Below are positions 114 to 55,080 of a DNA stretch of 64,000 nt, piece by piece. The stretch is from an uncultured Azospirillaceae bacterium. GTDB taxonomy: Bacteria; Pseudomonadota; Alphaproteobacteria; Rickettsiales; UBA3002. Position numbers and translations under genes: made by a program. Numbering within the stretch: position 1 is the first letter of the stretch; every line of letters starts with the position of its first letter. Location of the stretch: contig CAYGTO010000003.1 in assembly GCA_964352815.1 (NCBI GenBank), positions 69,015-133,014 on the forward strand. The letters are read 5' to 3'. The notes beneath the pieces are model-generated. The model had not been told where the DNA came from. It was given only the letters and a program-made list of their open reading frames with translations, and made no database searches.

Positions 114-267
114 TGTCATCCTGGCGCGCGAAACAATCGTTATCCTGGCGCATGGCACCAGGATCTACGGGCTGGGGGTGAGATGCTGGTGTCATGCACC
201 AGCATGACGTGTATTCGCTGGATTGCCTGTGACCTCGCGCTCCTGCGCTCGGCACGTGGCAATGACA
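114..267 (+). repeat. long-form composite palindromic element, copy A (degenerate)
   Basis: Starts TGTCATCCTGG and ends CGTGGCAATGACA. From 219 it carries the ~50-nt right module TGGATTGCCTGTGACC...CACGTGGCAATGACA, shared with 11721-11769, 18767-18816 and (reverse) 51634-51682. Internal 7-bp hairpin GCTGGTG/CACCAGC at 185-203. Confidence 0.7.
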
Positions 268-11633: not shown

Positions 11634-11769
11634 TGTCATCCCCGCGAAAGCGGGGATCCACAATCATATATGTCAGCAGACATATATGATTTCATAAAAT
11701 GCCTACTTGCATTTTGTGAATGGATTGCCTGCACGCGCTCACTGCTGTTCGCTTGGCGTGGCAATGACA
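11634..11769 (+). repeat. long-form composite palindromic element, copy B
   Basis: TGTCATCCCCGC-GAAA-GCGGGGATCCA. A 12-bp hairpin at 11663-11690 (ATCATATATGTC-agca-GACATATATGAT). A 12-bp hairpin with one G-T pair at 11691-11720. Right module TGGATTGCCTGCACG...GCGTGGCAATGACA at 11721-11769. Confidence 0.85.
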
Positions 11770-13150
11770 TGCTTTGTAGGCCCGCCTCATGCACTTTCGT
11801 ACTCGGCGCAGCATTCATATTCGCCGGCGCTTGCTCGGCCGCCTTCATCATCCGATGCGCCGTAAGCTCCGCATACAGCTCGGCATAGGACGCTTCACCA
11901 AATTCAGGAATCTCGCGCATCGCATCAATAATCTCCGGCACATGTTCCTCGCGATGCCCTTGCGGCAACACATCCAGCGCCGCATCGATATGCGCGAAGA
12001 GTTCGCCGCGATCGATCTTTTTCTCTGAGAAAGGCGCCGCCGCTTTGCAGAGCAGGCCAAGCATAATGATCGCCGTACCGCCTACTTTGAATTTATTGGC
12101 GTTGATAAGTTTCTCATCACTCGCCGCGGTCGCTTCGTACAAATCTTTAAGACCACTATTCATGATAAACCCAGTAGCTGCGAATTCGGAAAGCCCCGAC
12201 ACCGGCATCGCCTGCCTGCGCACTGGGTCGATATATTTTTTCGCCACCTCTTTTCCAAACACATCGCGGATGGCATATTCCACCCAATCAAGCACCGCTG
12301 CCTGATCTGCCTCAGGCTGTTCATCTAATTGACGCTGGGGTTCGGTTTCTTTTCCTTTCCCTGCAAGCGTCACGATTTTTGCAAATTGCGATAATTTGCC
12401 CGCCCGTTGCAGCCAGACATCGCTTGAAGATTTAGACAAAATCATCTTACCGAAAAACTTAAGTAAATCGCTGGCAACGGTAGAATTTTTCTTCAATGAA
12501 TGATCAATCTGATCCAATGTTGATGATCCAATATTTTCTTCGACCTGCCTCTCTTGCGCGCTTATTGCATGGGTCCCTAGCGCCTCATTGATGCGCTGTT
12601 TGGTGAGATACAGCCCCGCTTCATCGCCACGCTTTTGAACACCGTAACCAAGATTGATCATATTTGCGGCAATGCTGGTTCCCGCTGAATACACCTCGAC
12701 ATAAGGGTCTTTTACTTTTACCAAGCTAAATAAATCGGCCTTTGCGGGTTTGTCAAAATTTAGGCCGCGCTTTAGGCCGGAATAAAATACCATCGCCTGA
12801 CCGATATTGCCCAGCACCCCCCGCACGCGCATCAGGTCAACACTTTCCGTCCAGCTTTTCTCCTTCACCACTTCGCGGTAGGCGTCCTTGCCGGCCATTT
12901 GGGTGAGGGAACGCGCGACGGCTTCGGCGGGCTGGGGCGAGCGCAAGACGAGCGTATGGGTGCCATCCTCATGATGGTGTTCGCCGAGGGTGTGATAAGT
13001 CGCGGCGCCTTGCTTAAGCTGATGATGCAAATCCTCCAGCGATTCGCAAGCGCGCGTCGTCAAGGCCAGCACACTGCCCTTGCCCAACATGGTGACATCG
13101 GCGCGTTGCACCAGATCACCCTTATGTTTCGCGTCGAATCGCTTAATCAT
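11636..13150 (-). CDS. hypothetical protein (orphan); last ~44 codons and stop lie inside repeat copy B
   Basis: 504-aa open frame with a GAGGA SD 7 nt upstream of ATG 13150. No recognisable domain. The C-terminal ...MSLPRQANSSERVQAIHSQ...GSPLSRG is the reverse-frame read of the repeat. Confidence 0.55.
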   Translation of the reverse strand: MIKRFDAKHKGDLVQRADVTMLGKGSVLALTTRACESLEDLHHQLKQGAATYHTLGEHHHEDGTHTLVLRSPQPAEAVARSLTQMAGKDAYREVVKEKSWTESVDLMRVRGVLGNIGQAMVFYSGLKRGLNFDKPAKADLFSLVKVKDPYVEVYSAGTSIAANMINLGYGVQKRGDEAGLYLTKQRINEALGTHAISAQERQVEENIGSSTLDQIDHSLKKNSTVASDLLKFFGKMILSKSSSDVWLQRAGKLSQFAKIVTLAGKGKETEPQRQLDEQPEADQAAVLDWVEYAIRDVFGKEVAKKYIDPVRRQAMPVSGLSEFAATGFIMNSGLKDLYEATAASDEKLINANKFKVGGTAIIMLGLLCKAAAPFSEKKIDRGELFAHIDAALDVLPQGHREEHVPEIIDAMREIPEFGEASYAELYAELTAHRMMKAAEQAPANMNAAPSTKVHEAGLQSMSLPRQANSSERVQAIHSQNASRHFMKSYMSADIYDCGSPLSRG

Positions 13151-13161
13151 TCCCTATCCTC

Positions 13162-13239
13162 GTCATCCTGAGAAGCGGAGCGACAAAGGATCTATAGTGC
13201 CTCACGCACAGTAGATCCTTCGCTTCGCTCAGGATGACA
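13162..13239. repeat. short-form palindromic element, copy F
   Basis: The outer 11-bp arms are GTCATCCTGAG / CTCAGGATGAC and the inner 9-bp arms are AAGGATCTA / TAGATCCTT. It lies 11 nt upstream of the orphan gene start. Confidence 0.85.
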
Positions 13240-13371
13240 CATTTCTCCAACATTTCATTCTACCATGTGTTTTTTGCATAGGTCAGCTGGTTATTTATGA
13301 AGTTTCTGTGACAATAGCTATATAAGCTATTGATAAGAATATGTTTTTCTATATCGAAGCACCCTTAACTC

Positions 13372-13513
13372 GTCACCCCGGCGAAGGCCGGGGTCTATGA
13401 TCTAACGCAATACCCCGATTTAGATCCTGGATTCCGGCGTTGGCTTCGCCGCCCTGCGGGTCGCCGGAATGACGACACACAATTCCAAGCTGACATTTCG
13501 CACGAGGATGACA
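13372..13513. repeat. nested/adjacent palindromic element remnants, cluster G
   Basis: GTCACCCCGGC-gaag-GCCGGGGTC left end. CTGGATTCCGGCG...CGCCGGAATGAC module ending at 13473. A further solo terminus CGAGGATGACA at 13503-13513, the same end as copy D. Confidence 0.6.
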
Positions 13514-13523
13514 TAATCGCGAT

Positions 13524-14777
13524 ATGATGCACCCCCTCCCCACCTGGCCGCCGGCGCTATGGCGCACACCCGAAGGCACTGCGATCGAGCGGACGCAGAC
13601 GATGCTCGCGCGGTTGAGCCATCCGGAAAAACAACTCAACTCACCTATCATTCTCGCCGGAACGAACGGTAAAGGATCGGTGCTATCGATGATTCGGGCG
13701 ATTTTGATAGGCGCAGCCTATCATGTGCATAGCTATACCACCCCGCATTTGCAGCGATTCAACGAACGGATTGTGCTGAATGGCACGCCGATTTCAGACG
13801 CATATCTCGAGGAGCTACTCACGCGATGCCGTCATGCGGCCGGCGAGTTGGAGCTCGAATTTTTTGAAGGCACCACCGCCCTGGCCCTGCTCGCTTTCGC
13901 GGAAAGCCAAGCTGACTATACGTTGCTTGAGGTGGGCTGTGGCGGGCGCGACGATGCGGTCAATGTCATTCCCGATCGTGCACTGAGCGTCATCACCACG
14001 ATTTCCTATGACCATATGGAAGTGCTAGGCCACCGCCTGCCGGATATTGCCAAACACAAACTCGGCATATTGCGTGAAGGCGTGCCCGCGGTAATCGGCT
14101 ACCAACCACCTGATTTACATGCGCTTATTATTGAGGCAGCCGAGGATGCTGGTGCCCCCATTTTCATGCATGGCATGCATTGGACCATCTCGCAGACGGG
14201 CGATGGCATGCGCTATGAAGATGCGGAAGGGGCGATCGACCTGCCCCTGCCTAACCTACTAGGAACCCACCAGATTTTGAATGCAGGCTGCGCGATTGCC
14301 GCTATCCGTCGCCTGCCGCCTGAGTCCCCCATCGCGGGCGAAACCATCGCGCAGGGCTTGCAGAATATTCACCACCCAGGCCGGCTCGAACGCATTGCGT
14401 GGGAGCATGAACAGACCCACCCGCTCTATTTCGATGGTGGGCATAATTTGGCCGCCGCGGTCGCGATTGCTGAGTCCTTGAAATGGCTTGAGAAAGAGCG
14501 CACCATCCTCATCTTTGGCACCACCCAGGGTAAGGATGTCAGCGCCATGCTCATGCCTTTTGCGGGTCAAATCGAAGCGGTTTACGGCGTGCAGCCGCAG
14601 AACGAACCGCTCGCCTGTTCGCTCTCTGAAATCGAAGAGGTCGCCGAAACGCATGGGCTAAACTATAGCGAAGCGGGCACTATTGAAACGGCGCTCGACG
14701 CCGCGCGCGCGCAACTGCCGGAAGCGAATCTGCTCATATTTGGCTCGCTGTTTATGCGGGGTGAAGTAACCTCATAA
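13524..14777 (+). CDS. folC: bifunctional folylpolyglutamate synthase / dihydrofolate synthase
   Basis: P-loop ILAGTNGKGSV ~50 aa from the start, ITTISYDHMEVLG, and the Mur-ligase-like C-terminal FDGGHN. Confidence 0.85.
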   Translation: MMHPLPTWPPALWRTPEGTAIERTQTMLARLSHPEKQLNSPIILAGTNGKGSVLSMIRAILIGAAYHVHSYTTPHLQRFNERIVLNGTPISDAYLEELLTRCRHAAGELELEFFEGTTALALLAFAESQADYTLLEVGCGGRDDAVNVIPDRALSVITTISYDHMEVLGHRLPDIAKHKLGILREGVPAVIGYQPPDLHALIIEAAEDAGAPIFMHGMHWTISQTGDGMRYEDAEGAIDLPLPNLLGTHQILNAGCAIAAIRRLPPESPIAGETIAQGLQNIHHPGRLERIAWEHEQTHPLYFDGGHNLAAAVAIAESLKWLEKERTILIFGTTQGKDVSAMLMPFAGQIEAVYGVQPQNEPLACSLSEIEEVAETHGLNYSEAGTIETALDAARAQLPEANLLIFGSLFMRGEVTS

Positions 14778-14778
14778 T

Positions 14779-14804
14779 GCACCCCCGTTGAACAACGGGG
14801 GTGC
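14779..14804. terminator. GC-rich hairpin between convergent folC and gst
   Basis: GCACCCCCGTT-gaac-AACGGGGGTGC is a perfect 11-bp stem beginning 2 nt after the folC stop. There is no clear U-tract on either strand, so intrinsic termination is not certain. Confidence 0.5.
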
Positions 14805-17218: not shown

Positions 17219-18655
17219 ATGAGTAATGTTACCGCCAGTGAAGGTTCGCTCCTCGCAGAAGCGCGAGTGCTCTTCGGCGATTTCGTCAGCTTCCTTGATA
17301 GTGTGCTGTTTTATCCGATCCCCTTTCCTGGTACGTCGGAGGGGTTTCCCTTCCTTGTTTTATGGCTCGTGATCGGGGGGATTTTTTTTACGTTTCGCTT
17401 TGGCTTTCAAAATTTTCGGCTGATTCCCCATGGATTCGCCGTGGTGACCGGGAAATATGATAAGGAAGACGAACCAGGCGAAATCACGCATTTCCAGGCA
17501 CTTGCTTCGGCGATTTCCGGCACGACCGGGCTAGGTAATATTTCAGGCGTTGCAGTGGCGCTAGCCATGGGCGGCCCTGGGGCCATTGTGTGGATGATCC
17601 TGGCGGCGCTGTTCGGCACAGCGGCCAAGCTTGCCGAAGTAACGGTCGGCCATAAATATCGCAAGATTGACCCGGAGACGGGCAAAGTCTCAGGCGGCGG
17701 GTTTCATTATCTTGAAGAAGCGATGACCCAGCGCGGCATGCCGTGGCTTGGCAAAGCACTCGCGATTATGTTTTCGATTTGCTGTATTGGCGGCGCAGTG
17801 GCCGGCGGAAACATGCTGCAATCGAATCAGGCGGTGGCGATCGCTGTCGATAGCTATCCGTTCTTGCAAGGCACAGAGATTATTCTCTCGCTCGGGCTAG
17901 CGATGTTTGTGTTTATCATTTTAGTGGGCGGAATTAAGCGAATCGCGCGTACTGCAGAGCGAATTGTTCCCGCTATGGCAGCAATCTATGTGATCGCCGC
18001 GATTACGGTGCTGGTGAGCAATGCCCATCTCGTACCCGATGCGATGATGCTAATTCTTAACTCGGCCTTTGGCGTTGACGCTGCGGCAGGTGGTTTGGTC
18101 GGGGCAATGATCGCCGGATTCCGCCGAGCTTTCTTCTCGAATGAAGCCGGCGTGGGCTCAGCACCGATTGCCCATGCGGCGGTCAAAACCTCGGAGCCGG
18201 TGCGCGAAGGCTGCGTCGCCTTGCTCGAGCCGCTGATTGATACGGTGCTGGTGTGCACCATGACCGGCCTGGTGCTCGTGGTAACCGGTGTCTACAACCA
18301 GCCAGAGCTTGGCGAAGGGGTGACGCTCACCGCGGCCGGATTCGCCACCGTGATTGATTGGTTCCCGCAAGTGTTGGCGCTCTGCGTGCTCATGTTCGCC
18401 TTTTCGACGATGATCACCTGGAGCTATTATGGCGAGCGGGCGTGGAACTATCTGTTCGGCCCCAAATCCGTCGTAATCTTCTATATCTTCTTCTGCTCGC
18501 TCACCTTCTTTGGCGGGTTGGTCAATCTTAAGGTCGTGGTCGACTTTGGTGATCTGCTTCTGCTCTCCATGGCCATTCCCAACCTGATCGGGCTGTATGT
18601 GATGCAGCGTGAAGTGTCAGACGATATTAAAGCCTATCGCGAGAAATATCTCTAA
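17219..18655 (+). CDS. alanine/glycine:cation symporter (AGCS family)
   Basis: FQALASAISGTTGLGNISGVAVALAMGGPGAIVWM and FFSNEAGVGSAPIAHAA are AGCS signatures. Confidence 0.9.
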   Translation: MSNVTASEGSLLAEARVLFGDFVSFLDSVLFYPIPFPGTSEGFPFLVLWLVIGGIFFTFRFGFQNFRLIPHGFAVVTGKYDKEDEPGEITHFQALASAISGTTGLGNISGVAVALAMGGPGAIVWMILAALFGTAAKLAEVTVGHKYRKIDPETGKVSGGGFHYLEEAMTQRGMPWLGKALAIMFSICCIGGAVAGGNMLQSNQAVAIAVDSYPFLQGTEIILSLGLAMFVFIILVGGIKRIARTAERIVPAMAAIYVIAAITVLVSNAHLVPDAMMLILNSAFGVDAAAGGLVGAMIAGFRRAFFSNEAGVGSAPIAHAAVKTSEPVREGCVALLEPLIDTVLVCTMTGLVLVVTGVYNQPELGEGVTLTAAGFATVIDWFPQVLALCVLMFAFSTMITWSYYGERAWNYLFGPKSVVIFYIFFCSLTFFGGLVNLKVVVDFGDLLLLSMAIPNLIGLYVMQREVSDDIKAYREKYL

Positions 18656-18659
18656 ACAA

Positions 18660-18816
18660 TGTCATCCTCGGGGCTTTTGTCAGAAAGACAAAAGATTCCG
18701 GGGATCCAGGATTAAAACGTCAGAAGACGTTTTAATTTCCAAGAATGTCTTCTGACATTCTTGGAGTGGATTGCCTGTACGCGCTCGCTTTCTGCTCGCT
18801 TGACGTGGCAATGACA
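18660..18816 (+). repeat. long-form composite palindromic element, copy C (best preserved)
   Basis: TGTCATCCTCGGGG. Hairpins at 18674-18694 (8 bp), 18711-18736 (11 bp, loop AGAA) and 18739-18764 (11 bp, loop TTCT). CCGGGGATCCAG. Right module at 18767-18816 ending GGCAATGACA. It exactly fills the gap between two convergent stops. Confidence 0.9.
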
Positions 18817-18817
18817 A

Positions 18818-18997
18818 TTACGCTTGCTTGCTCAGCACGTAATTCAGCTTCTGAATTGCAAGCTGCCTGAGTCGCTCTTCCCCTGCGTTCGGGTCGCCAA
18901 CGATCGAGACCTCTGTCAGCGTCTCAGAATCCATGGCAGACACTTTGACATAAGCGCCTTGCGAGATGAATTCGATAATGATCTCACGCTCACTCAT
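18818..18997 (-). CDS. small conserved hypothetical protein
   Basis: MSEREIIIEFISQGAYVKVSAMDSETLTEVSIVGDPNAGEERLRQLAIQKLNYVL. The ATG at 18997 overlaps the upstream stop by 8 nt (ATGAGTGA), which suggests coupling. Confidence 0.45.
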   Translation of the reverse strand: MSEREIIIEFISQGAYVKVSAMDSETLTEVSIVGDPNAGEERLRQLAIQKLNYVLSKQA

Positions 18998-20279: not shown

Positions 20280-21370
20280 TAGCTGAGCGCCTCCTGCCAT
20301 ACGTTGCGCACGGCGGCTTCATCCGCGTCATTGATGATTGTCGCCTCGCCAATGGCATGCATCGAAATCAGAGTGATTTTCCCGTCTTGCGCTTTCTTAT
20401 CGTGGCGCATATGCCCCATGAGCGCATCGATGGGCCATGATGTGTCTAATGCCTTGGGAGAATGTGTAAGCCCTAATGATGCAAGATGTTGCTGAATACG
20501 GTCTGCATCTGCCTGAGGCAGCGCGCCTTGTGTGACGGCAAATCGCGCGGCAAGCACCATGCCGATCGCCACTGCTTCACCATGCAGCAATGATCCATCA
20601 TAGCCCGCTTCCGCTTCGAGCGCATGGCCAAAGGTATGCCCCAAATTCAGTAGCGTCCGCTTGCCTGCTTCTCTCTCATCTTCGGCGACAATCTGCGCTT
20701 TCATCGCGCAGCAATGGGCGATGGCATAGGTCAGCGCTTTGCTATCGCGCGCGAGCACTTTATCGCCATTTGTTTCTAACCATCTGAAAAACTCCGCATC
20801 GCCTAAGAGGCCATATTTCATCATTTCGGCATAACCCGCCTTCATCTCGCGCTCAGGAAGCGTTTCTAGCGTATTTGTATCGATCAGCACGGCTTGCGGC
20901 TGATAAAACGCGCCAATCGTGTTCTTACCATAGGCACTGTTGATCCCCGTTTTGCCGCCAACGGAACTATCGATCTGCGCGAGCAGCGTTGTCGGAATTT
21001 GAATGAAGGGAAGACCGCGCAGAAGTACGCTCGCCGCAAAGCCGGTGAGATCGCCAATCACCCCGCCGCCGAGAGCAATAAGCGTGGTTTTACGGTCGGG
21101 CTGATGTTCAAACATACGATTTAAAAGCAACTCAAACGAGGCAAAGGATTTACTCCCCTCGCCCGAAGGAACCTCGATAATAGGCGCATCAACCGACGCC
21201 GCCTTCAATGTTTCTTGCAGCGGCCTCGCATAGATGCCTACAAGCGACTCATCCGCCACGATAATCGCGCGCTTCGTCGGCAGCGTTTCTGCAATTCTCT
21301 CCATTGCGCCTGCGCCAAGGAGAATGTCATAACTGCGATCGCCTAAATGAATGGGAATGGTTTTCATCAC
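20279..21370 (-). CDS. aroB: 3-dehydroquinate synthase
   Basis: LIALGGGVIGDLTGFAA, GGKTGIN, LNLGHTFGHALE. ATGA overlap with the aroK stop. Confidence 0.9.
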   Translation of the reverse strand: MMKTIPIHLGDRSYDILLGAGAMERIAETLPTKRAIIVADESLVGIYARPLQETLKAASVDAPIIEVPSGEGSKSFASFELLLNRMFEHQPDRKTTLIALGGGVIGDLTGFAASVLLRGLPFIQIPTTLLAQIDSSVGGKTGINSAYGKNTIGAFYQPQAVLIDTNTLETLPEREMKAGYAEMMKYGLLGDAEFFRWLETNGDKVLARDSKALTYAIAHCCAMKAQIVAEDEREAGKRTLLNLGHTFGHALEAEAGYDGSLLHGEAVAIGMVLAARFAVTQGALPQADADRIQQHLASLGLTHSPKALDTSWPIDALMGHMRHDKKAQDGKITLISMHAIGEATIINDADEAAVRNVWQEALS

Positions 21371-23912: not shown

Positions 23913-24830
23913 ATGGCAGCGCTCCCTTACCGCGACCTGTTCGTTGATATGTTGCTTGCTGAGCGCGGCGCTTCGAAACATACCGTCGAAGCGTATGATC
24001 GGGATTTGCGCGATTTTATGGAATCACTCCCTAAGGATGTTAAAGTCGAGTCACTTAGCAACCACGCGATTGACCGCTTCATGACAGAACTTGGCAGCCG
24101 CGGACTCGCCGCCTCGACCTTGTCGCGCAAGCTTTCTGCGATTCGACATTATTTCAAATTTCTCTACTCTGAAGGCATTCGCCACGATAACCCCGCGCTT
24201 CACACGGCACGGCCGAAAAGAGCAAAGCCACTGCCGCATTGTTTGAGTGCGGATGAGGTGCAGCATTTGCTGGATACTGCGCAGCATGATGAGAGCGCTG
24301 AAGGTATCCGCCTGTATACCATGTTAGAAGTGCTCTATGCCTCTGGCATGCGGGTGAGTGAGCTGGTCACTTTACCAATCAAGACATTGCGTTCGCTGGA
24401 TAGCAAAAATATTATGATGCTTTCTGTTACCGGAAAGGGGAAGAAAGAACGGCTCGTACCACTGCATTCTACTGCGTGCGAAGCGCTGCAGCATTATCTG
24501 CCCATGCGTGCAGCATTTTTTCCTAAAGGAGAAGAAGATAGCCTCTATCTTTTCCCATCATACGGCAGCAAAGGGCATGTCACGCGTCAACGATTTGGCC
24601 AACTCATCAAGGCGCTTGCAATAAAGGCCGGGATGGACCCAACCACATTGTCCCCCCATGTGATTCGCCATTCCTTCGCAACGCATTTGCTTCAGAACGG
24701 TGCAGATTTACGGGTGATACAGGAGCTTCTCGGACATAGTGACATTAGCACAACCCAGATTTACACGCATGTGATGCAGGAAGATTTAAAGAAGCTCGTC
24801 GAAGCTTATCACCCACTCGCGCAAGAGTAA
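23913..24830 (+). CDS. xerD: site-specific tyrosine recombinase XerD-type
   Basis: N-terminal SAM-like ...LAERGASKHTVEAYDRDLRDF. The catalytic box RHSFATHLLQNGADLRVIQELLGHSDISTTQIYTHV contains the R...HxxR...Y residues. Confidence 0.8.
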   Translation: MAALPYRDLFVDMLLAERGASKHTVEAYDRDLRDFMESLPKDVKVESLSNHAIDRFMTELGSRGLAASTLSRKLSAIRHYFKFLYSEGIRHDNPALHTARPKRAKPLPHCLSADEVQHLLDTAQHDESAEGIRLYTMLEVLYASGMRVSELVTLPIKTLRSLDSKNIMMLSVTGKGKKERLVPLHSTACEALQHYLPMRAAFFPKGEEDSLYLFPSYGSKGHVTRQRFGQLIKALAIKAGMDPTTLSPHVIRHSFATHLLQNGADLRVIQELLGHSDISTTQIYTHVMQEDLKKLVEAYHPLAQE

Positions 24831-29937: not shown

Positions 29938-30057
29938 TCACATTCCACAGTTTTTTCTATACTTCAGTATAGCAAAGCTGCGCGCGAGAAATGTGACAGT
30001 TTTGTGAAGTTGCGGATGAAAAGCACTTCAGAAGCGGTGCGGGAAAGGGTCCCTAAC

Positions 30058-31616: not shown

Positions 31617-34226
31617 TTAATAATTATCCAAGAAGCTGCGCATTTTTCGGCTGCGGCTTGGGTGCTTCAGCTTGCGCAGGGCTTTGGCTTCAATCTGACG
31701 AATCCGCTCACGGGTCACGCTAAACTGCTGCCCCACTTCCTCGAGCGTATGGTCGGTGTTCATGCCAATGCCAAAGCGCATCCGCAGCACCCGCTCTTCG
31801 CGCGGTGTCAGCGTCGCCAGCACGCGGGTGGTGACTTCGCGCAGATTATTATGCACCGCGGAATCGAGCGGCAGAATCGCATTTTTATCTTCGATGAAAT
31901 CGCCAAGATGCGAATCTTCCTCATCACCCACCGGGGTTTCGAGCGAGACCGGCTCTTTCGCGATTTTCATCACCTTGCGCACTTTGTCGACAGGCATCAC
32001 CAAACGTTTCGCCAATTCTTCTGGCGTTGGCTCACGGCCAATTTCATGCAACATCTGACGACCGGTGCGGACAATTTTATTGATTGTTTCGATCATATGG
32101 ACCGGAATCCGGATCGTACGCGCTTGGTCCGCAATCGAACGGGTGATTGCCTGACGAATCCACCAGGTTGCATAGGTTGAGAATTTATAGCCGCGGCGAT
32201 ATTCGAACTTATCGACCGCCTTCATCAGGCCAATATTTCCTTCCTGAATCAGATCCAGGAATTGCAGCCCGCGATTGGTGTATTTCTTCGCGATCGAAAT
32301 CACGAGGCGCAGGTTTGCCTCAATCATCTCCTTCTTCGCACGTGATGCCTCGCGTTCACCCTTACTCACCGCGCCAACGACACGCTTGAATTCTTGCACA
32401 TCAAGGCCCTGTTGCTTCGCGACCGCTTCAATCTTCTCACGAATCTCAATGATTTCATCTTTGTGATTGGCAACAAACTCTTTCCAGCCCTTCTCCTTCA
32501 GCTTAGAAACATCTTTGATCCAGTCCGGTGCGACTTCATTGGTTGCGTAATGCTCAAGGAAATTTTTGCGACTGACTTTGGATTTTTCGGCAAGGCGGAG
32601 GAGCCGCGTCTCAAGTGCGATGAGCTTTTTATTTTCACCGTAGAGACGATCCATCAGCTCGTCGACACGCAGCGCGCTCAAACGCACCGTCAGCATGAGC
32701 TCAGTAAGATCCTTATGGAGAGCATCATACTTCTTTTGATCTACTGTGGCGAAACTACCTTCGCCAAATCCAGCACCCAGACGCTTATCCTGCAAGCGCT
32801 TCATCTTTTTCGCGATTTTAGCAAAATCGTCTAACGTTTCAAGGAACTGAGGCATGAGCGCATTTTCCATCGCCACCAGTGACATTGCCGTGTCATCATA
32901 ATCATCCTCGTCCTCTTCCTCTTCCTCGCCTTCGCCCTCTTCATCTTCCTTATCTTCATCCTCATCGGTTTCATCATCCGAATCTTTTTTGGATTTTTTC
33001 TTGGGCTTATCTTCTTCCTTTGTCTCTTTTTCTTTGGCCTCTTTTTCTTTTGTCTCCTCTTCCTCTAGCGTATCAAATGCCTCTTCAAGCTCGTCTTCTG
33101 TAGGCTCATCTTCATCTTCCGAGAAATCATTCTCAGCATTATAGGTGCCTTCCAGATCGATGATATCACGCAGTAAAATCTCACCCGTCGATAGCCCATC
33201 ACGCCAGGCCAGCATGGTGTCCATCACCACGGGACTTTCGCACAAAGACCGAATAATCATCTCGCGACCTTCTTCAATGCGCTTCGCAATCGCAATCTCA
33301 CCTTCGCGTGAGAGCAGCTCGACATTGCCCATCTCGCGCAAATACATGCGAACAGGGTCATCGGAGCGACCGTAATAATCATCACTCTTTGCTTCCGATT
33401 CCTCTTCTTCCGCTTCTTCGCCCTCAATCGTTACTTCTTTTTCTTCACTATCACCTTCCACAAGATCCGTCACCTTGATGCCATTTTTTTCAAGCGCATC
33501 AATCGTATTATCAATCACTTCGGGGGAGAATTCTTCCGCAGGAAGTACCGCATTCAAATCATCATACGTCACGAAGCCTTGCTTCTTACCCAGCGTCGCA
33601 AGTTTTTTCATGACATCAGGAGAGACACTATTCTTCAGATTTTCTGCCGGAACGGCTTTCTTCGCCGTCTTTTTCGTTTTGCTTTCTTTCGCAGTCGCCT
33701 TCTTCGGCGTTTCTGCTTTCGCTGGCTTTTTGGCTGCTGACTTTGGAGCTGCCTTCGTGGCTTTCGCTTTTACAGGCGCTTTAGATGCTGCCTTTTTCGA
33801 GGTCGATTTCGTTGATTTAACAGTTGCAGTCACAGACTTCTTAGCCTTTACAGGAGTGGTTTTTTTCGATGCGGTGGAAGCTGTCGTCTTCTTCGCGGTT
33901 GTTTTTGTTGTAGTAGTATTACGCGTGGCCGCCTTTTTAGGTGACGCTTTGGCCGCGACTTTTTTCGCAGGCGCTTTCTTAGCAGCGGCCTTTTTGGTTG
34001 GCGTCTTCTTCGCGGGAGATTTCTTCACCGCTGTTTTAGTAGTAACTTTTTTTACCGGTGTTTTTTTCGTAGCAGGCTTCTTGGCTGCTGGCTTTTTCAC
34101 TGTGACTTTCTTTGCTGGCGCTTTCTTAGCAGCAGACTTCTTCACCGCTGCTTTTTTGGCCGGCGCTTTTTTCGCTGCTGTTTTTTTTGCTGTTGATGCT
34201 TTTGCGGTTTTCTTCTTCGCTACCAT
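31617..34226 (-). CDS. rpoD: RNA polymerase primary sigma factor with Lys/Ala/Pro-rich N-terminal extension
   Basis: Regions 1.2-4.2 are canonical ([11 protein letters not shown], ...[55 protein letters not shown], ...[27 protein letters not shown]). aa 1-195 are AKKxP-type repeats in the same frame. Confidence 0.9.
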
Positions 34227-34423
34227 AGACGACCCCTGCCTTACATGAAGGCACTGTTTTATTCTGTCATTTGCCGAGAATAATAATGTATCTCAATTTC
34301 TTAACTGAAAAGAGATATAGAGATTTCTTGATAGACTTCAAGTATTAACTCTAGGCAAGGTGCTGTTTTATTCTGAAACCTTCAAGCAATAGCCCGCGGT
34401 TTTCCACAAGTCGGAGGCACAGA

Positions 34424-45714: not shown

Positions 45715-46098
45715 ATGGTTGAGAACAGTCATGAGCTGGATGAATGCGGCGTTTTTAATGAATCGGGCGACCCAAAGGCCGAGGATGTGACAATCACATT
45801 TCGTGATAACGCCGGAGCAGAACATTCCTTTAGCGTGCACTACACAGTCGTCGATGAGATTCACGAAATCTTTGCTGGCTATGGCGTTCCTAAGATTGAG
45901 GAGGCACGTGATATTTTGGTAGAGCATGCGCCAAGAGACATTCAAGCCGTGATGAATGGGCTTGATATTGATGCACTCAAGAAAAGCACGCCACCTTTAT
46001 GTGGCACCCCTCTATCGCCGTCAGCGTCTAGAGAAGCGCCTGAGCAAAGCCCTCCACCGCTGCCCCGGCCCCGTCCGGATGGCCCCACACGCTCGTGA
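45715..46098 (+). CDS. hypothetical acidic protein
   Basis: ATG 45715 is preceded by AAGGAAAG. The Pro-rich 3' tail overlaps the convergent thiE by ~70 nt, so the true end is doubtful. Confidence 0.35.
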
Positions 46099-46831
46099 TC
46101 GCAGCAATGAAATCCGCCCCGGCCTTGACCATCGGCGTGCAATTTTCCGGCGTCATGCCGCCAATTGCGACGCAGGGAATTTCCGTATAGATGCTCCACC
46201 ATTCCAGAATCTCGGTGGTTGGCGTGCCATATTTCGCAAGCTTTTCGGGTGCTTTCGACTGGGTCGGGTGAAAGGCGCCGAAGGCGACATAATCGGCACC
46301 CGCTGCCGCTGCATCCATCGCCAAATGTTTGCTATCGTGGCAGCTTACGCCAAGAATCGCCTCTTCCCCCAGAAGCTCGCGCATCCGCGCCACTGGCCAT
46401 TCCGCCAGATCTTCCTGCCCGAGATGCACCCCGTCGCAGCCGAGCTGCTTCGCAAGATCCGGCCGGTCATTCATAATAAAGGCGACCTCATACTCCTGAC
46501 AAATCGGCAGGAGCGCTTTCGCCGCCTCGATGATTTGATCGTCCGTCGCTGGCTTCGCAATATCACTCGGGTCCTTCAAGCGGAGTTGGAACGCGCCGAT
46601 GAGGTTTGTGGCTTCCGCACTGTCATCCCGGCGCATGCCGGGATCCGGGGCTTCACCCACTATCTCATTTACAGCCCCAGACCCCGCAACAGGTGCGGGG
46701 TGACAATTTGAGGATTGTTGTGCATCCGCGACACCCTTCCCCGCCCCGAGCGCCGCGCGAAGCTGCGCCGAAAATGCCTCTAATTCGAGCTGCGGCGGTG
46801 AAATTAGGTAGAGATAACAAGGCTCTGTCAT
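46028..46831 (-). CDS. thiE: thiamine-phosphate synthase carrying an in-frame repeat-element insertion
   Basis: LYLISPP...FQLRLKD...FIMNDRPDLAKQLGCDGVHLGQEDL...GVSCH...GADYVAFGAFHPT...IGGM. aa 43-71 (CHPAPVAGSGAVNEIVGEAPDPGMRRDDS) are encoded by element copy H. Confidence 0.85.
   Translation of the reverse strand: MTEPCYLYLISPPQLELEAFSAQLRAALGAGKGVADAQQSSNCHPAPVAGSGAVNEIVGEAPDPGMRRDDSAEATNLIGAFQLRLKDPSDIAKPATDDQIIEAAKALLPICQEYEVAFIMNDRPDLAKQLGCDGVHLGQEDLAEWPVARMRELLGEEAILGVSCHDSKHLAMDAAAAGADYVAFGAFHPTQSKAPEKLAKYGTPTTEILEWWSIYTEIPCVAIGGMTPENCTPMVKAGADFIAAITSVWGHPDGAGAAVEGFAQALL
46621..46705. repeat. palindromic element copy H, inside the thiE reading frame
   Basis: TGTCATCCCGGC-gcat-GCCGGGATCCGGGG...ACCCCGCA-acagg-TGCGGGGTGACA. 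It has the GTCAT/(G)TGAC termini and the GGATCC core of the family, and two perfect hairpins (6 and 8 bp). Confidence 0.8.
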
Positions 46832-48296: not shown

Positions 48297-48395
48297 CGAT
48301 CTGCTCCTGAATGTTCTTTTTTGTCTGTTTAACGAGTCTTCAGGCAAAACACGATAGCGATTGTGTAACTTTACACAATGAAATCTTTAACACCT

Positions 48396-48473
48396 TCATC
48401 CTGAACAAAGCGAAGGATCTATTCTTCGGGTGGCGCCATAGATCCTTCGTCAGCTTCGCTTCCTCAGGATGAC
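48396..48473. repeat. short-form palindromic element, copy I
   Basis: TTCATCCTGAAC...CGAAGGATCTAT-15 nt-ATAGATCCTTCG...CCTCAGGATGAC. It lies between the gloA stop and the fba start. Confidence 0.85.
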
Positions 48474-48480
48474 GGGTCTG

Positions 48481-48936
48481 CTACCAGCTCCCCGTATTCT
48501 CCATACTCGCCCAGGGCTCGGCGGGCGCGAGCGCATCGCCCTTCTGCAAAAGCTCGATCGAGATGCCATCAGGCGAGCGCACAAACGCCATATGGCCATC
48601 GCGCGGCGGGCGGTTGATGGTGACGCCGCCATCCATCAGTCTCTGGCACAGCGTGTAGATATTCTCAACGCGGTACGCCAGATGACCAAAATTGCGGCCG
48701 CCCGTATAGTCTTCACTGTTGCCATTCTCATCCGGCCAGTTATAGGTCAGCTCGACCAGCGGCGACTTCGTTTCCTTCGCGCGCTCCGCATCTCCCGGCG
48801 CGGCAAGGAAGACAAGCGTAAAGCGCCCCTTCTCATTGTCATAGCGCCTGGTCTCCAACAGCCCCAGCTTGGTGCAGTAAAAATCAAGCGATGCGTCCAA
48901 ATCCTTCACGCGCACCATTGTATGTAAATATTCCAT
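48481..48936 (-). CDS. gloA: lactoylglutathione lyase (glyoxalase I)
   Basis: [20 protein letters not shown]...ELTYNW...FGHLAYRV...[27 protein letters not shown]. Confidence 0.9.
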
Positions 48937-51633: not shown

Positions 51634-51789
51634 TGTCATTGCCACGTGCCGAGTGCAGAAGCACGAGGTCACAGGCAATCCAGGAAGAAAATGTCAGGAG
51701 ACATTTTCTGACGCTAAAAATCTTCTGATTTTTAGCTATTCTGGATCCCCGGGATCGTTTGCCTACTGACATACACCCCGAGGATGACA
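51634..51789 (-). repeat. long-form composite palindromic element, copy D (inverted relative to A-C)
   Basis: Its reverse complement starts with the same 14 nt as copy C (TGTCATCCTCGGGG). It shares CCGGGGATCCAG, has 10-bp hairpins at 51713-51736 and 51686-51709, and the right module ends CGTGGCAATGACA. It sits in the tkt-gap intercistronic spacer. Confidence 0.9.
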
Positions 51790-51791
51790 GT

Positions 51792-53834
51792 TTAAGTTAG
51801 TTTCTTCTCCACCGCCTCGACAATCGCCTCCGCGGTGATGCCAAAATGTGCATATAGCTCAGGCGCTGGTGCCGATGCGCCAAAGCCATCCATGCCGATA
51901 AACACACCATCGCGGCCAATGTAGCGCTCCCAGCCAAAGCCAGATGCTGCTTCAATCGCGACTTTTAATATGGATGCGTCACCCAACACCTCTTGCTTAT
52001 ATGCTTCCTCTTGCGCTTCGAACAGCTCCCAGCATGGCATAGAGACGACACGCACTTTCATACCTTTCTCACGTAGCGCCTTCGCAGCTTCCACGCAGAG
52101 ATGGGTTTCGGAGCCCGTGCCAAGCAAAATCGCTTGCGGGTTGTCATCCGAATGTTCACACATGATATAGGCGCCATTCGCGCATAGATTTTCATCGCTC
52201 ATCTGGCTTCGTAAATGCGGCAAGCCTTGGCGCGATAGGGCGAGGATCGATGGGGTATCCGTCGCTTTCAGCGCCAGCTCCCAACATTCGGCCGTTTCGC
52301 TCGCATCGCATGGGCGGAAGACATTCACATTCGGCATGGCACGTAAGGAAGCGACATGTTCAATCGGTTGGTGCGTCGGACCATCTTCGCCAAGCCCAAT
52401 CGAATCATGGGTCATGACGTAAATCACTTGCTGCTGCATCAGCGCCGAAAGGCGAATCGCCGGACGGCAATAATCGGTGAACACCAAGAACGTCCCGCCA
52501 TAGGGCACAAAGCCGCCATGCAGCGCGACGCCATTCATCACCGCCGCCATGCCATGTTCACGAATCCCATAATGAATGTAGCTACCCTCATAATGCTCCG
52601 CGCTCACCACCGCCATCTCTTTGGCTTTGGTATTGTTTGATCCCGTCAAATCGGCCGAGCCGCCGAGTAAATTATCGAGCTTCGCATGCAGCGCATCGAG
52701 CACATTTTGCGATGATTTACGCGAGGCTTCTTTAGGCTGCGATTCTGCCAGTTGCTTTTTCAGTGCGGTGACCACTTCACTCACCGCCGCTTGATTCACC
52801 CCAGCGAGAAACGCATCAAAACGCGCCTTTTCCGAAGAGGCTTCATAACGCTGCGCCCAGGCCTCGTGGGCCGGCTTACCAATATCATTCGCGTGACGCC
52901 AGCTCGTGAGAATCTCTTCTGGAATCTCGAATGGCGCATGGCTCCAGCCCATCGCTTCACGCGTGCCAGCAATTTCTTCATCCCCGAGCGGTGCACCATG
53001 GCTCGCTGCCGTGCCCGCCTTGGTCGGCGCGCCTTTCGCAATCGTCGTCTTGCAACGAATCAATGTCGGCTTGTCGCTCTGCTTCGCCGAGAACAGCGCC
53101 TGCGCAATTTGCACCGGGTCGTGCCCATTAATGCTCGTTACGTTCCAACCGCAGGCTTCAAACCGCTTCGTATGGTCTTCCGAGGTTGACAGCGAGGTCG
53201 GGCCATCAATCGAAATGCCGTTATCATCAAACAACACGACGAGTTTCGACAAGTTCAAATGCCCTGCGAAAGAAATGGCTTCTTGCGAAATCCCCTCCAT
53301 CAGGCAGCCATCACCGGCGATGACGTAGGTATGGTGGTTGACCAAATCATCCCCGAAACGTGCGTTCAATAAACGCTCGGCAAGCGCCATACCAACACCG
53401 TTCGCAAGCCCTTGGCCTAGCGGCCCCGTTGTGGTTTCAATCCCTCGCGCATGGCCAAACTCTGGATGTCCGGCTGTACGTGCGTTTAGCTGACGAAACT
53501 GCTTAATTTCATCGAGGGTAATATCTTCATAGCCGCTCAAATACATCAAGGCATATTGCAGCATCGAGCCATGGCCGGCCGAGAGAATAAACCGGTCGCG
53601 GTCAGGCCATGCCGGGGCGGCCGGGTCAAATTTCAACACATCTTGGAACAACACCGTCGCGACATCGGCCATCCCCATCGGCATGCCGGGGTGCCCAGAA
53701 TTCGCGGCCTGCACCGCATCCATCGACAAAGCGCGAATCGCGTTGGCAAGTTCATCATGCGTCACCTCATGGTGAGCCGACGGCGTGGTTGCGGATGAAG
53801 ACACAGGCACCTCATTTTGTTGCGCCGGAATCAT
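51792..53834 (-). CDS. tkt: transketolase
   Basis: SGHPGMPMGMADV, the TPP-binding GDGCLMEGIS, and EDGPTHQPIEH. Confidence 0.9.
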   Translation of the reverse strand: MIPAQQNEVPVSSSATTPSAHHEVTHDELANAIRALSMDAVQAANSGHPGMPMGMADVATVLFQDVLKFDPAAPAWPDRDRFILSAGHGSMLQYALMYLSGYEDITLDEIKQFRQLNARTAGHPEFGHARGIETTTGPLGQGLANGVGMALAERLLNARFGDDLVNHHTYVIAGDGCLMEGISQEAISFAGHLNLSKLVVLFDDNGISIDGPTSLSTSEDHTKRFEACGWNVTSINGHDPVQIAQALFSAKQSDKPTLIRCKTTIAKGAPTKAGTAASHGAPLGDEEIAGTREAMGWSHAPFEIPEEILTSWRHANDIGKPAHEAWAQRYEASSEKARFDAFLAGVNQAAVSEVVTALKKQLAESQPKEASRKSSQNVLDALHAKLDNLLGGSADLTGSNNTKAKEMAVVSAEHYEGSYIHYGIREHGMAAVMNGVALHGGFVPYGGTFLVFTDYCRPAIRLSALMQQQVIYVMTHDSIGLGEDGPTHQPIEHVASLRAMPNVNVFRPCDASETAECWELALKATDTPSILALSRQGLPHLRSQMSDENLCANGAYIMCEHSDDNPQAILLGTGSETHLCVEAAKALREKGMKVRVVSMPCWELFEAQEEAYKQEVLGDASILKVAIEAASGFGWERYIGRDGVFIGMDGFGASAPAPELYAHFGITAEAIVEAVEKKLT

Positions 53835-54903: not shown

Positions 54904-54909
54904 TAAGAG

Positions 54910-55066
54910 AAGTACTGCGCGGTGCGTGAGGATCGAACGCTCCGGGACCGATGTAACCTTTAAGGGAGCTGTCCCTTGCTTCGGCTGTGGCCTTAGTAAT
55001 ATGGCACCCACCTGACCACACGGGTCACGGGAGGTTTTATGCATCCCACGGCCAGCGCGGTACTTT
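54910..55066 (+). ncRNA. ssrS: 6S RNA (putative)
   Basis: It lies between zapA and the 5-formyl-THF cyclo-ligase gene, the conserved ssrS slot. An 11-bp closing stem pairs AAGUACUGCGC (54910-54920) with GCGCGGUACUU (55055-55065), with one G-U pair. Length is ~157 nt. An internal arm CUCCGGGACC pairs imperfectly with GGGUCACGGGAG. Confidence 0.6.
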
Positions 55067-55080
55067 ACCTAAGGTCCACT

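Follow-up and report, generated by a model that had tools for sequence, protein, structure and literature searches.

What kind of element recurs four times within 64 kb of an uncultured alphaproteobacterial genome, with hairpin stems that change in sequence from copy to copy and yet remain paired? The question is raised by a stretch of 64,000 nucleotides (nt) from an Azospirillaceae bacterium (assembly GCA_964352815.1, contig CAYGTO010000003.1, positions 69,015 to 133,014; hereafter the window, with coordinates counted from its first letter), in which four copies of about 150 base pairs (bp), A to D, had been described as long forms of a composite element. The earlier note did not recognise their architecture as that of a described element. 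The long form is a lineage-specific, enlarged version of a tags-outward (HH) dimer of CGTC-tagged repetitive extragenic palindromes (REPs), an already known type of selfish or regulatory repeat, and not a new class of element, and its new part is limited to enlarged loops and a two-hairpin spacer in an unsampled lineage.

Direct reading of the window finds all four copies (136-157 bp) with the positions and sequences that had been given for them. The 14-nt left end TGTCATCCTCGGGG of C is repeated without a difference in the reverse complement of D, and the block CCGGGGATCCAG is found in both. Two further sequences, TGGATTGCCTG and CGTGGCAATGACA, have four mismatch-free occurrences each, confined to copies A-D, and an nhmmer profile built from the four copies matches exactly these four in the window, with E values of 1e-33 to 5e-44. 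CGTC-tagged REPs, which occur mainly in alphaproteobacteria, consist of an unpaired tag CGTC (variants TGTC and CCTC), a stem of 8-9 bp that starts with AT, a loop of 4-5 nt (atypical in some species) and an unpaired 3-nt tail that is mostly CCA (Di Nocera et al., 2013, PMC3733652). Their predominant form is the HH dimer, with the tags outside and a spacer of 20-100 bp, and some of these spacers, including those of CGTC-3 in A. tumefaciens, contain one or two stem-loops; the family includes dRS3 of Neisseria and RPE-4 and RPE-6 of Rickettsia, and Azospirillum lipoferum is among its listed hosts (PMC3733652).

In tag, stem and tail the end modules of the long form share this anatomy. TGTC stands at both outer ends of A-D, and CGTC or TGTC ends are also found on the middle unit of A and on the shorter elements E1, E2, F and G, which are taken up below. 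Stems of 8-9 bp starting with AT are formed by ATCCCCGC/GCGGGGAT in the left unit of B and, with one T.G pair, by ATCCTCGG/CCGGGGAT in the left units of C and D; the middle unit of A (ATGCTGGTG) and the right unit of F (ATTCCGGCG) likewise have AT-start stems, the left stem of F and the right stem of G start with AC, and the stem of the right module is made of ATTGCC, a bulge and three further pairs. The short loop of 4-5 nt is present in the left unit of B (GAAA), the left unit of F, both units of G and the middle unit of A. The left units of B, C and D are followed by CCA, those of A and F have the tail CTA, and TGG stands in front of the right unit in each of the four copies. As the right module (TGG-ATTGCC...GGCAAT-GACA) is a unit of this kind too, but inverted, the tags face outward, an arrangement common to all eight elements of the window.

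One unit can be matched to the known family letter by letter. The left unit of B is identical, at 26 of 26 positions, to several sites in the replicons of Azospirillum lipoferum 4B, in Sphingopyxis indica and in others (BLAST, plasmid/chromid collection), and the matches extend to Tistrella, Sphingobium, Neisseria (dRS3) and Legionella. Two of the matched sites, one of them within ileS, were read and follow the plan CGTC-REP-CCAG-spacer-CTGG-REP-GACG, as the long form does. The idea of an undescribed architecture is not supported: the end modules belong to the CGTC-tagged REPs and the element as a whole is an HH dimer (PMC3733652), one left unit is identical to REPs in species in which the family was defined, and REPINs have already been reported to combine REP ends that do not vary with a variable, compensated spacer (PMC3116915). 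The positions of the copies, of their parts and of the related elements are collected in Table 1.

Table 1. Long-form copies, their parts and the shorter related elements in the window
Feature	Positions	Strand	Description
Long-form copy A	114-267	+	whole element
Long-form copy B	11634-11769	+	whole element
Long-form copy C	18660-18816	+	whole element
Long-form copy D	51634-51789	-	whole element
A, left unit	114-168	+	partial internal duplication
A, third REP unit, in spacer	180-209	-	CGTC-ATGCTGGTG-CATGA-CACCAGCAT
A, right unit	219-267	+	type alpha
B, left unit	11634-11661	+	canonical CGTC-1 REP, TGTC-ATCCCCGC-GAAA-GCGGGGAT-CCA
B, spacer hairpins	11662-11691 and 11692-11719	+	
B, right unit	11721-11769	+	
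C, left CGTC-type REP unit	18660-18709	+	tag TGTC, stem ATCCTCGG/CCGGGGAT with one T.G, tail CCAG
C, nested hairpin in left REP loop	18674-18694	+	CTTTTGTC-AGAAA-GACAAAAG
C, spacer hairpin H2	18711-18736	+	ATTAAAACGTC-AGAA-GACGTTTTAAT, 11 bp, perfect
C, spacer hairpin H3	18738-18765	+	TCCAAGAATGTC-TTCT-GACATTCTTGGA, 12 bp, perfect
C, right REP unit, inverted	18767-18816	+	TGG-ATTGCC...GGCAAT-GACA; loop large, partly structured
D, spacer hairpins	51713-51736 and 51686-51709	-	
D, right unit	51634-51682	-	inner type alpha, common to A
E1, short element	13161-13239	not assigned	tags outward (CGTC...GACA), near-palindromic; inner GATCTA..TAGATC hairpin
F	13371-13474	+	left unit CGTC-ACCCCGGC-GAAG-GCCGGGGT-CTA, then spacer hairpin
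Solo left-end fragment	13490-13514	-	
G, short HH dimer	46621-46705	not assigned	in frame within thiE
E2, short element	48395-48474	-	sibling of E1

What is kept in the spacer between the REP units is the fold and not the sequence of the stems. The long-form spacers measure 58-60 nt and in B, C and D carry two adjacent, perfect, AT-rich hairpins. In the common fold of all copies, whether RNA or DNA parameters are used, the end tags TGTC and GACA pair as a closing helix, inside which lie the left hairpin, a helix formed by the tails CCAG and CTGG with each other around the two AT-rich hairpins, and the right hairpin. The RNA fold has z-scores of -8.2 in C, -8.1 in D, -7.1 in B and -4.4 in A, and the fold with DNA parameters has z-scores of -7.8 in C and -7.3 in D; no shuffle was as stable in either case. 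The whole 64 kb contain six perfect hairpins with a stem of at least 10 bp, five of which lie in the B, C and D spacers. The observation that the stems differ among B, C and D yet stay complementary is borne out by their alignment, in which 96% of the cells are paired: both sides have changed in 12 of 56 consensus pairs that remain paired, as against 4.3 +/- 1.6 in shuffles (none of 500 reaches 12) and 1-2 in slid controls. Alignment scores of 9-15, against about -7 +/- 4 in shuffles, show homology among the B, C and D spacers, and the differences between their stems are therefore substitutions in diverged copies. The covariation in the spacer hairpins is real, and of the two readings that had been offered for it, one in which the element is transcribed as RNA and one in which a nuclease or transposase recognises the hairpin, both are still live.

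The earlier proposal that the structure itself is the selected or replicated unit thus holds for the conservation of the fold. Its second half, replication as a unit, is weakened by the make-up of the copies, which are mosaics, comparable to BIMEs and NIMEs (bacterial and Neisseria mosaic elements), because left and right module types have been recombined among them. The right REP loop of about 30 nt comes in two inner types, alpha in A and D and beta in B and C, and within type alpha A and D differ by one compensated change from C-G to T-A. A bulged T and a T.G pair in the right REP stem, seen for instance in the type beta unit of C, are conserved in all four copies, and a T.G pair in the left stem is common to C and D, which also share an extra hairpin of similar style inside the loop of the left REP. 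H3 of copy C is approximately an inverted copy of H2, and the two spacer hairpins in general are roughly inverted copies of each other, since the A-D profile matches its own reverse strand (E = 8e-6). Copy A, which had been called degraded, is instead a REP trimer in effect, with a partly duplicated left unit and a third, minus-strand REP unit that replaces the two AT-rich spacer hairpins. The second hairpin of B has the single T.G pair that had been ascribed to it, in a stem of 11 bp with a 6-nt loop and not of 12 bp. The hairpin apexes of the long forms are mostly YGTC-N4-GACR, in agreement with the GTC-N4-GAC motif that had been pointed out, but the first hairpin of D has ATC-AGAA-GAT. When this apex was considered as an excision footprint, its four occurrences, all within elements, were found against 3.1 expected by chance, and the comparison is uninformative; a site for integration host factor (IHF) in the spacer, searched by eye, was dropped because the best candidate had two mismatches.

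The long forms are best explained as members of a larger population of HH dimers in the host genome. A scan of the window for tag-plus-stem hairpins returned four more elements with outward tags, which brings the number to eight in 64 kb (A-D, E1, E2, F and G). F, whose right unit reads TGG-ATTCCGGCG-(22-nt loop)-CGCCGGAAT-GACG, presents the long-form plan in miniature, and G reads TGTC-ATCCCGGC-GCAT-GCCGGGAT-CCG ... CAG-ACCCCGCA-ACAGG-TGCGGGGT-GACA. E1, E2 and F have a GATCTA..TAGATC spacer hairpin in common, unlike the spacer of the long form. E1, F and the solo fragment make up a REP-type cluster (13161-13514) between divergent genes, which is an unusual site for the CGTC family.

CGTC REPs are known to adjoin the 3' ends of open reading frames (ORFs) and to lie occasionally in frame within genes (PMC3733652), and the distances of 0-6 nt between stop codons and A, C (on both sides), D and E2 agree with this placement. 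Copy C fills the space between two convergent genes, beginning 4 nt past the stop codon of alsT (18653-18655) and ending 1 nt before that of a DUF6898 gene (18818-18820). Copy D is intercistronic in a same-strand tkt-gap-pgk cluster, 2 nt past the stop codon of tkt (51792-51794) and 21 nt before the start codon of gap (51612), and no promoter-like site lies between these genes. Copy A abuts, at 0 nt, the stop codon (268-270) of a minus-strand ORF (268-1035), and E2 begins 6 nt past the stop codon (48481-48483) of a glyoxalase-family gene, upstream of a same-strand gene for a DeoC-type aldolase. Other copies have become part of reading frames. The minus-strand ORF 11636-13150 (504 aa, no Pfam match) runs through B, which contributes the final ~44 codons along with the TGA stop at 11636-11638, and thiE (46028-46831, minus strand) carries an in-frame insertion of ~45 aa (~46601-46735) relative to a 50%-identical homologue; as this insertion coincides with G, it is a repeat within a conserved enzyme that resembles the intragenic Rickettsia palindromic elements (RPEs). 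Direct reading of the flanks revealed no target-site duplication at any of the eight elements. By GC skew A, B and C lie in one orientation and D in the opposite one, and the orientation relative to transcription can be read without ambiguity for D alone. Neither a sigma-70-like promoter nor an intrinsic terminator is associated with the elements in the window.

The elements can be compared with several known systems. With the HH dimers of the CGTC family they share the tag, the stem, the CCA tail, the tags-outward plan, spacers of 20-100 bp, the occurrence of heterodimers, stem-loops in some spacers, G.T pairs in stems, the position at ORF 3' ends with occasional in-frame copies, alphaproteobacterial hosts and the lack of an associated transposase (PMC3733652). 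They differ from them in the right loop of ~30 nt and the hairpin nested in the left units of C and D, where the norm of the family is a loop of 4-5 nt; in a spacer made up of a pair of neighbouring, perfect, AT-rich hairpins whose apex is mostly GTC-N4-GAC; and in a long-form spacer and right module for which genome, metagenome and plasmid collections hold no match. REPINs (Bertels and Rainey, 2011, PMC3116915) are likewise units of two inverted REPs and a spacer without target-site duplication, in which the REP ends are invariant and the spacer varies in sequence while its length and pairing are kept by compensatory changes; they are distinguished by a GTAG tag in place of TGTC or CGTC, by a RAYT gene with the same REPs on its flanks, of which none was found in the window, and by spacer halves that pair together as one long hairpin, whereas here each half forms its own hairpin and is compensated within itself. 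The RPEs (Ogata et al., 2000, 2002, via PMC2229807 and PMC3733652) are palindromic alphaproteobacterial repeats of 105-146 bp that lie between genes or are fused in frame, the trait for which they became notable and which G shows in thiE, and two of them, RPE-4 and RPE-6, belong to the CGTC REPs (PMC3733652); the present host, however, is not a Rickettsia (52% G+C, flagellar genes), and the comparison is one of plan. BIMEs of E. coli and NIMEs of Neisseria are mosaics of REP subtypes and short conserved motifs, as left and right types are mixed here; BIMEs have GTAG-type REPs and linkers with defined motifs, including one bound by IHF, with no such motif established here, and NIMEs form large clusters in contrast to discrete 150-bp units.

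The explanation that we favour, with a probability of roughly 0.65, is that the long forms are enlarged, lineage-specific and REPIN-like HH dimers of CGTC REPs, arranged around a 58-60-nt spacer with two AT-rich hairpins. It draws on the anatomy of the units, the identity of one of them to CGTC-1 REPs, the tags-outward plan, the placement at stop codons, the in-frame sibling in thiE, the lack of target-site duplications, the absence of elements at the corresponding junctions of relatives (see below) and the compensatory change in the hairpins. The elements would be non-autonomous mobile DNA, moved or copied as a folded single strand by a putative trans-acting enzyme, which would read the sequence-conserved tag, REP stem and CCA tail and would need of the spacer only the fold and the apex, so that lineages with non-pairing arms would be lost or no longer propagated. 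After insertion behind a stop codon, the fold in the mRNA would probably serve as a 3'-end or intercistronic stabiliser, a role that would explain why copies after stop codons are tolerated. Several points weigh against this explanation. The covariation rests on three informative sequences only (B, C and D), and loops exceed 4-5 nt in the right units of A-D (~30 nt), in the left units of C and D (26 nt, with the nested hairpin) and in the right unit of F (22 nt). Since module types are mixed among the copies, copying may not involve the 156-bp unit as a whole. No polymorphic insertion, excision junction or empty site in a close strain was found, and the other assemblies of the host are all 100% identical. 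The window contains no candidate mobilising gene: the RAYT or Y1 transposase that had been considered as a possible mobiliser is without a match, and Pfam scans of 50 window ORFs found neither Y1_Tnp nor any other transposase, the only recombinase being XerD-like (23913-24830). Alphaproteobacteria have few Y1 genes, and CGTC REPs are reported without an associated transposase (PMC3733652).

The main rival, which may coexist with the explanation just given, places the function at the RNA level: the fold would be kept mainly as a four-hairpin module of 3' untranslated or intercistronic regions, which blocks 3'-5' exonucleases, sets the level of tkt against that of gap-pgk or slows terminating ribosomes, and the REP ancestry would be incidental. 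The position of D within a same-strand cluster and the start of the elements 0-6 nt after stop codons speak for such a role, as does a strand asymmetry, since the canonical strand folds better as RNA than the reverse strand by 3.5-9.6 kcal/mol, has 16 G.U pairs against 5 when the four copies are summed, and in the consensus helices has 14 G.U cells against a single A.C cell. In E. coli, REPs reportedly stabilise upstream mRNA, as Newbury is said to have found in 1987, and REPs at most 15 nt from a stop codon are said to cause ribosome stalling, a finding attributed to Liang, Rudd and Deutscher in 2015. G.T pairs and 3'-end sites have been interpreted at the RNA level for the CGTC family as well (Di Nocera et al., PMC3733652). 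However, the orientation is clear for D only, B and C lie between convergent genes, the only known neighbour of A would transcribe the reverse strand, E1 and F lie between divergent genes and G in a coding region; several of the G.T pairs are shared by descent and thus not independent, and hairpins of single-stranded DNA tolerate G.T too. A need for the fold alone also leaves the sequence-invariant tags, REP stems and tails unexplained, and RNA function as the main reason for the conserved fold is possible but unlikely. Perfect stems might also be an unselected by-product of intrastrand template switching at quasi-palindromes during replication, in which one arm serves as the template of the other, a mutation is either removed or reproduced on the opposite arm, and the stem sequences drift and yet stay perfect. 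Switching of this kind is reportedly established in E. coli through the work of Ripley in 1982 and of the Lovett laboratory, and it would suit stems that are nearly all perfectly Watson-Crick, the 1-nt difference in H2 length between C and D that is mirrored on both arms, and the rapid divergence of stems beside flanking modules that do not diverge. The persistence of conserved imperfections (the bulged T and T.G of the right stem in all four copies, the left T.G in C and D) argues against it, and the conserved apex and length and the restriction of such hairpins to these elements would be left unexplained; as a full account it is improbable, though as a process it is compatible with the REP-dimer explanation and not exclusive of it.

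Other accounts fare less well. Short inverted repeats at the ends, a length of 136-157 bp, intergenic positions and the presence of several copies would fit a classical MITE (a transposable element of the miniature inverted-repeat type), that is an internally deleted DDE-type insertion sequence (IS) moved by cut-and-paste via its TGTCAT/ATGACA ends. Since the flanks of the eight elements lack duplications and neither an IS nor a transposase is found in the window, a DDE-type MITE is unlikely, and with REP hairpins as ends, identical to those of a family linked to no IS, it becomes a very remote prospect. Chance similarity or a recent duplication of flanking DNA, the latter named in the earlier note as an outcome that would overturn its interpretation, is ruled out for practical purposes: the flanking genes at the four long-form sites are unrelated, the similarity among the long forms ends exactly at the TGTC and GACA ends, and the z-scores reach -8 with no shuffle attaining the observed covariation. 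A further possibility goes beyond the REP-dimer explanation itself. The spacer hairpins and the nested hairpin combine an A/T-rich stem with an apex, YGTC-N4/5-GACR, in which the REP tag and its complement recur, and they might be recognition modules of a distinct, still-evolving derivative, read either by an RNA-binding factor or by whatever enzyme mobilises CGTC REPs; this extension is attractive in its consequences and rather doubtful in itself.

As for its distribution, the long form stands isolated in the collections searched. The right-module pattern GGATTGCCTG-N20-40-GTGGCAATGAC has eight matches in 596 Gb of representative genomes and nine in a metagenome collection, all of them chance matches within coding DNA; BLAST of copy D against the plasmid collection yielded noise only, without a match of spacer or right module; and a peptide profile of the open reverse frame of A-D (MSLPR...) found no match in the protein collection. 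Same-strain Logan contigs (loci L024 and L027) are 100% identical to the window and end in the right modules of C (18788), A (238) and B (11739), and for these two reasons they yield neither polymorphism nor new copies; the elements apparently break short-read assemblies of the host organism. About 5 kb past the end of the window, as covered by Logan contigs, there is no element. The host is a poorly sampled alphaproteobacterium, whose best non-self matches reach 79% identity for GAPDH and 68% for CorC. In the loci of four relatives (L018, L019, L029 and L032; 68-79% protein identity, ~60 kb in all) the long form was not found, and only a few short CGTC dimers were seen. The tkt-gap spacer of L018, the nearest relative, is 72 nt long and has no long form, and the DUF6898-alsT junction of L029 and L032 has no element. 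A hairpin at the tkt-gap junction does recur, with different sequences, given that L018 has an unrelated near-perfect palindrome (GGGTTTAAGGTTTAGGG...CCTAAACCTTAAACCTTAAACCC) at 363-425. L029, the relative with 68% CorC identity, has a tandem pair of CGTC HH dimers upstream of one gene (20469-20650), the first of which, with ATTGC..GCAAT stems and loops of 14-18 nt, resembles the right module of the long form. Beside this REP cluster, at ~20663, L029 also has the motif TTGTCACATTTC, which in the window stands upstream of genes at 81-92 and 29986-30007 and may be a shared regulatory site.

Some other features of the window may be recorded here. The only perfect hairpin of at least 10 bp outside the elements (14779-14804, GCACCCCCGTT-GAAC-AACGGGGGTGC) is GC-rich and probably a terminator, because it lies directly past the stop codon of a Mur-ligase-family gene (13524-14777). 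In a search of the window with Rfam 15 the long form itself had only chance-level matches (E up to 5), and the single match at gathering score was a 6S RNA (54909-55067, plus strand, RF00013, 61.6 bits), which lies in its usual neighbourhood between zapA and the gene for 5-formyltetrahydrofolate cyclo-ligase. The RpoD homologue (31617-34226, minus strand, 869 aa) has an N-terminal extension of ~200 aa rich in Lys, Ala and Pro (33600-34226), with AKKA/PAKK-type repeats derived from a 15-nt periodic repeat (33948-34229) and followed by an acidic stretch.

CGTC REPs and RPEs are widespread in alphaproteobacteria, and how they spread has been an open question since 2000-2013. If the spacer and nested hairpins were indeed recognition modules, these elements would offer a handle on it; in other respects they are a kind of repeat to be expected in a poorly sampled lineage. 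The combination of invariant ends with spacers in which only the fold is kept separates the parts that a protein would have to read from those that need only pair, and such spacers, together with a density of eight elements in 64 kb, are useful for the design of binding and cleavage tests. For the host itself, the elements extend or interrupt reading frames, as in thiE and the ORF 11636-13150, and at operon junctions such as tkt-gap they may alter expression.

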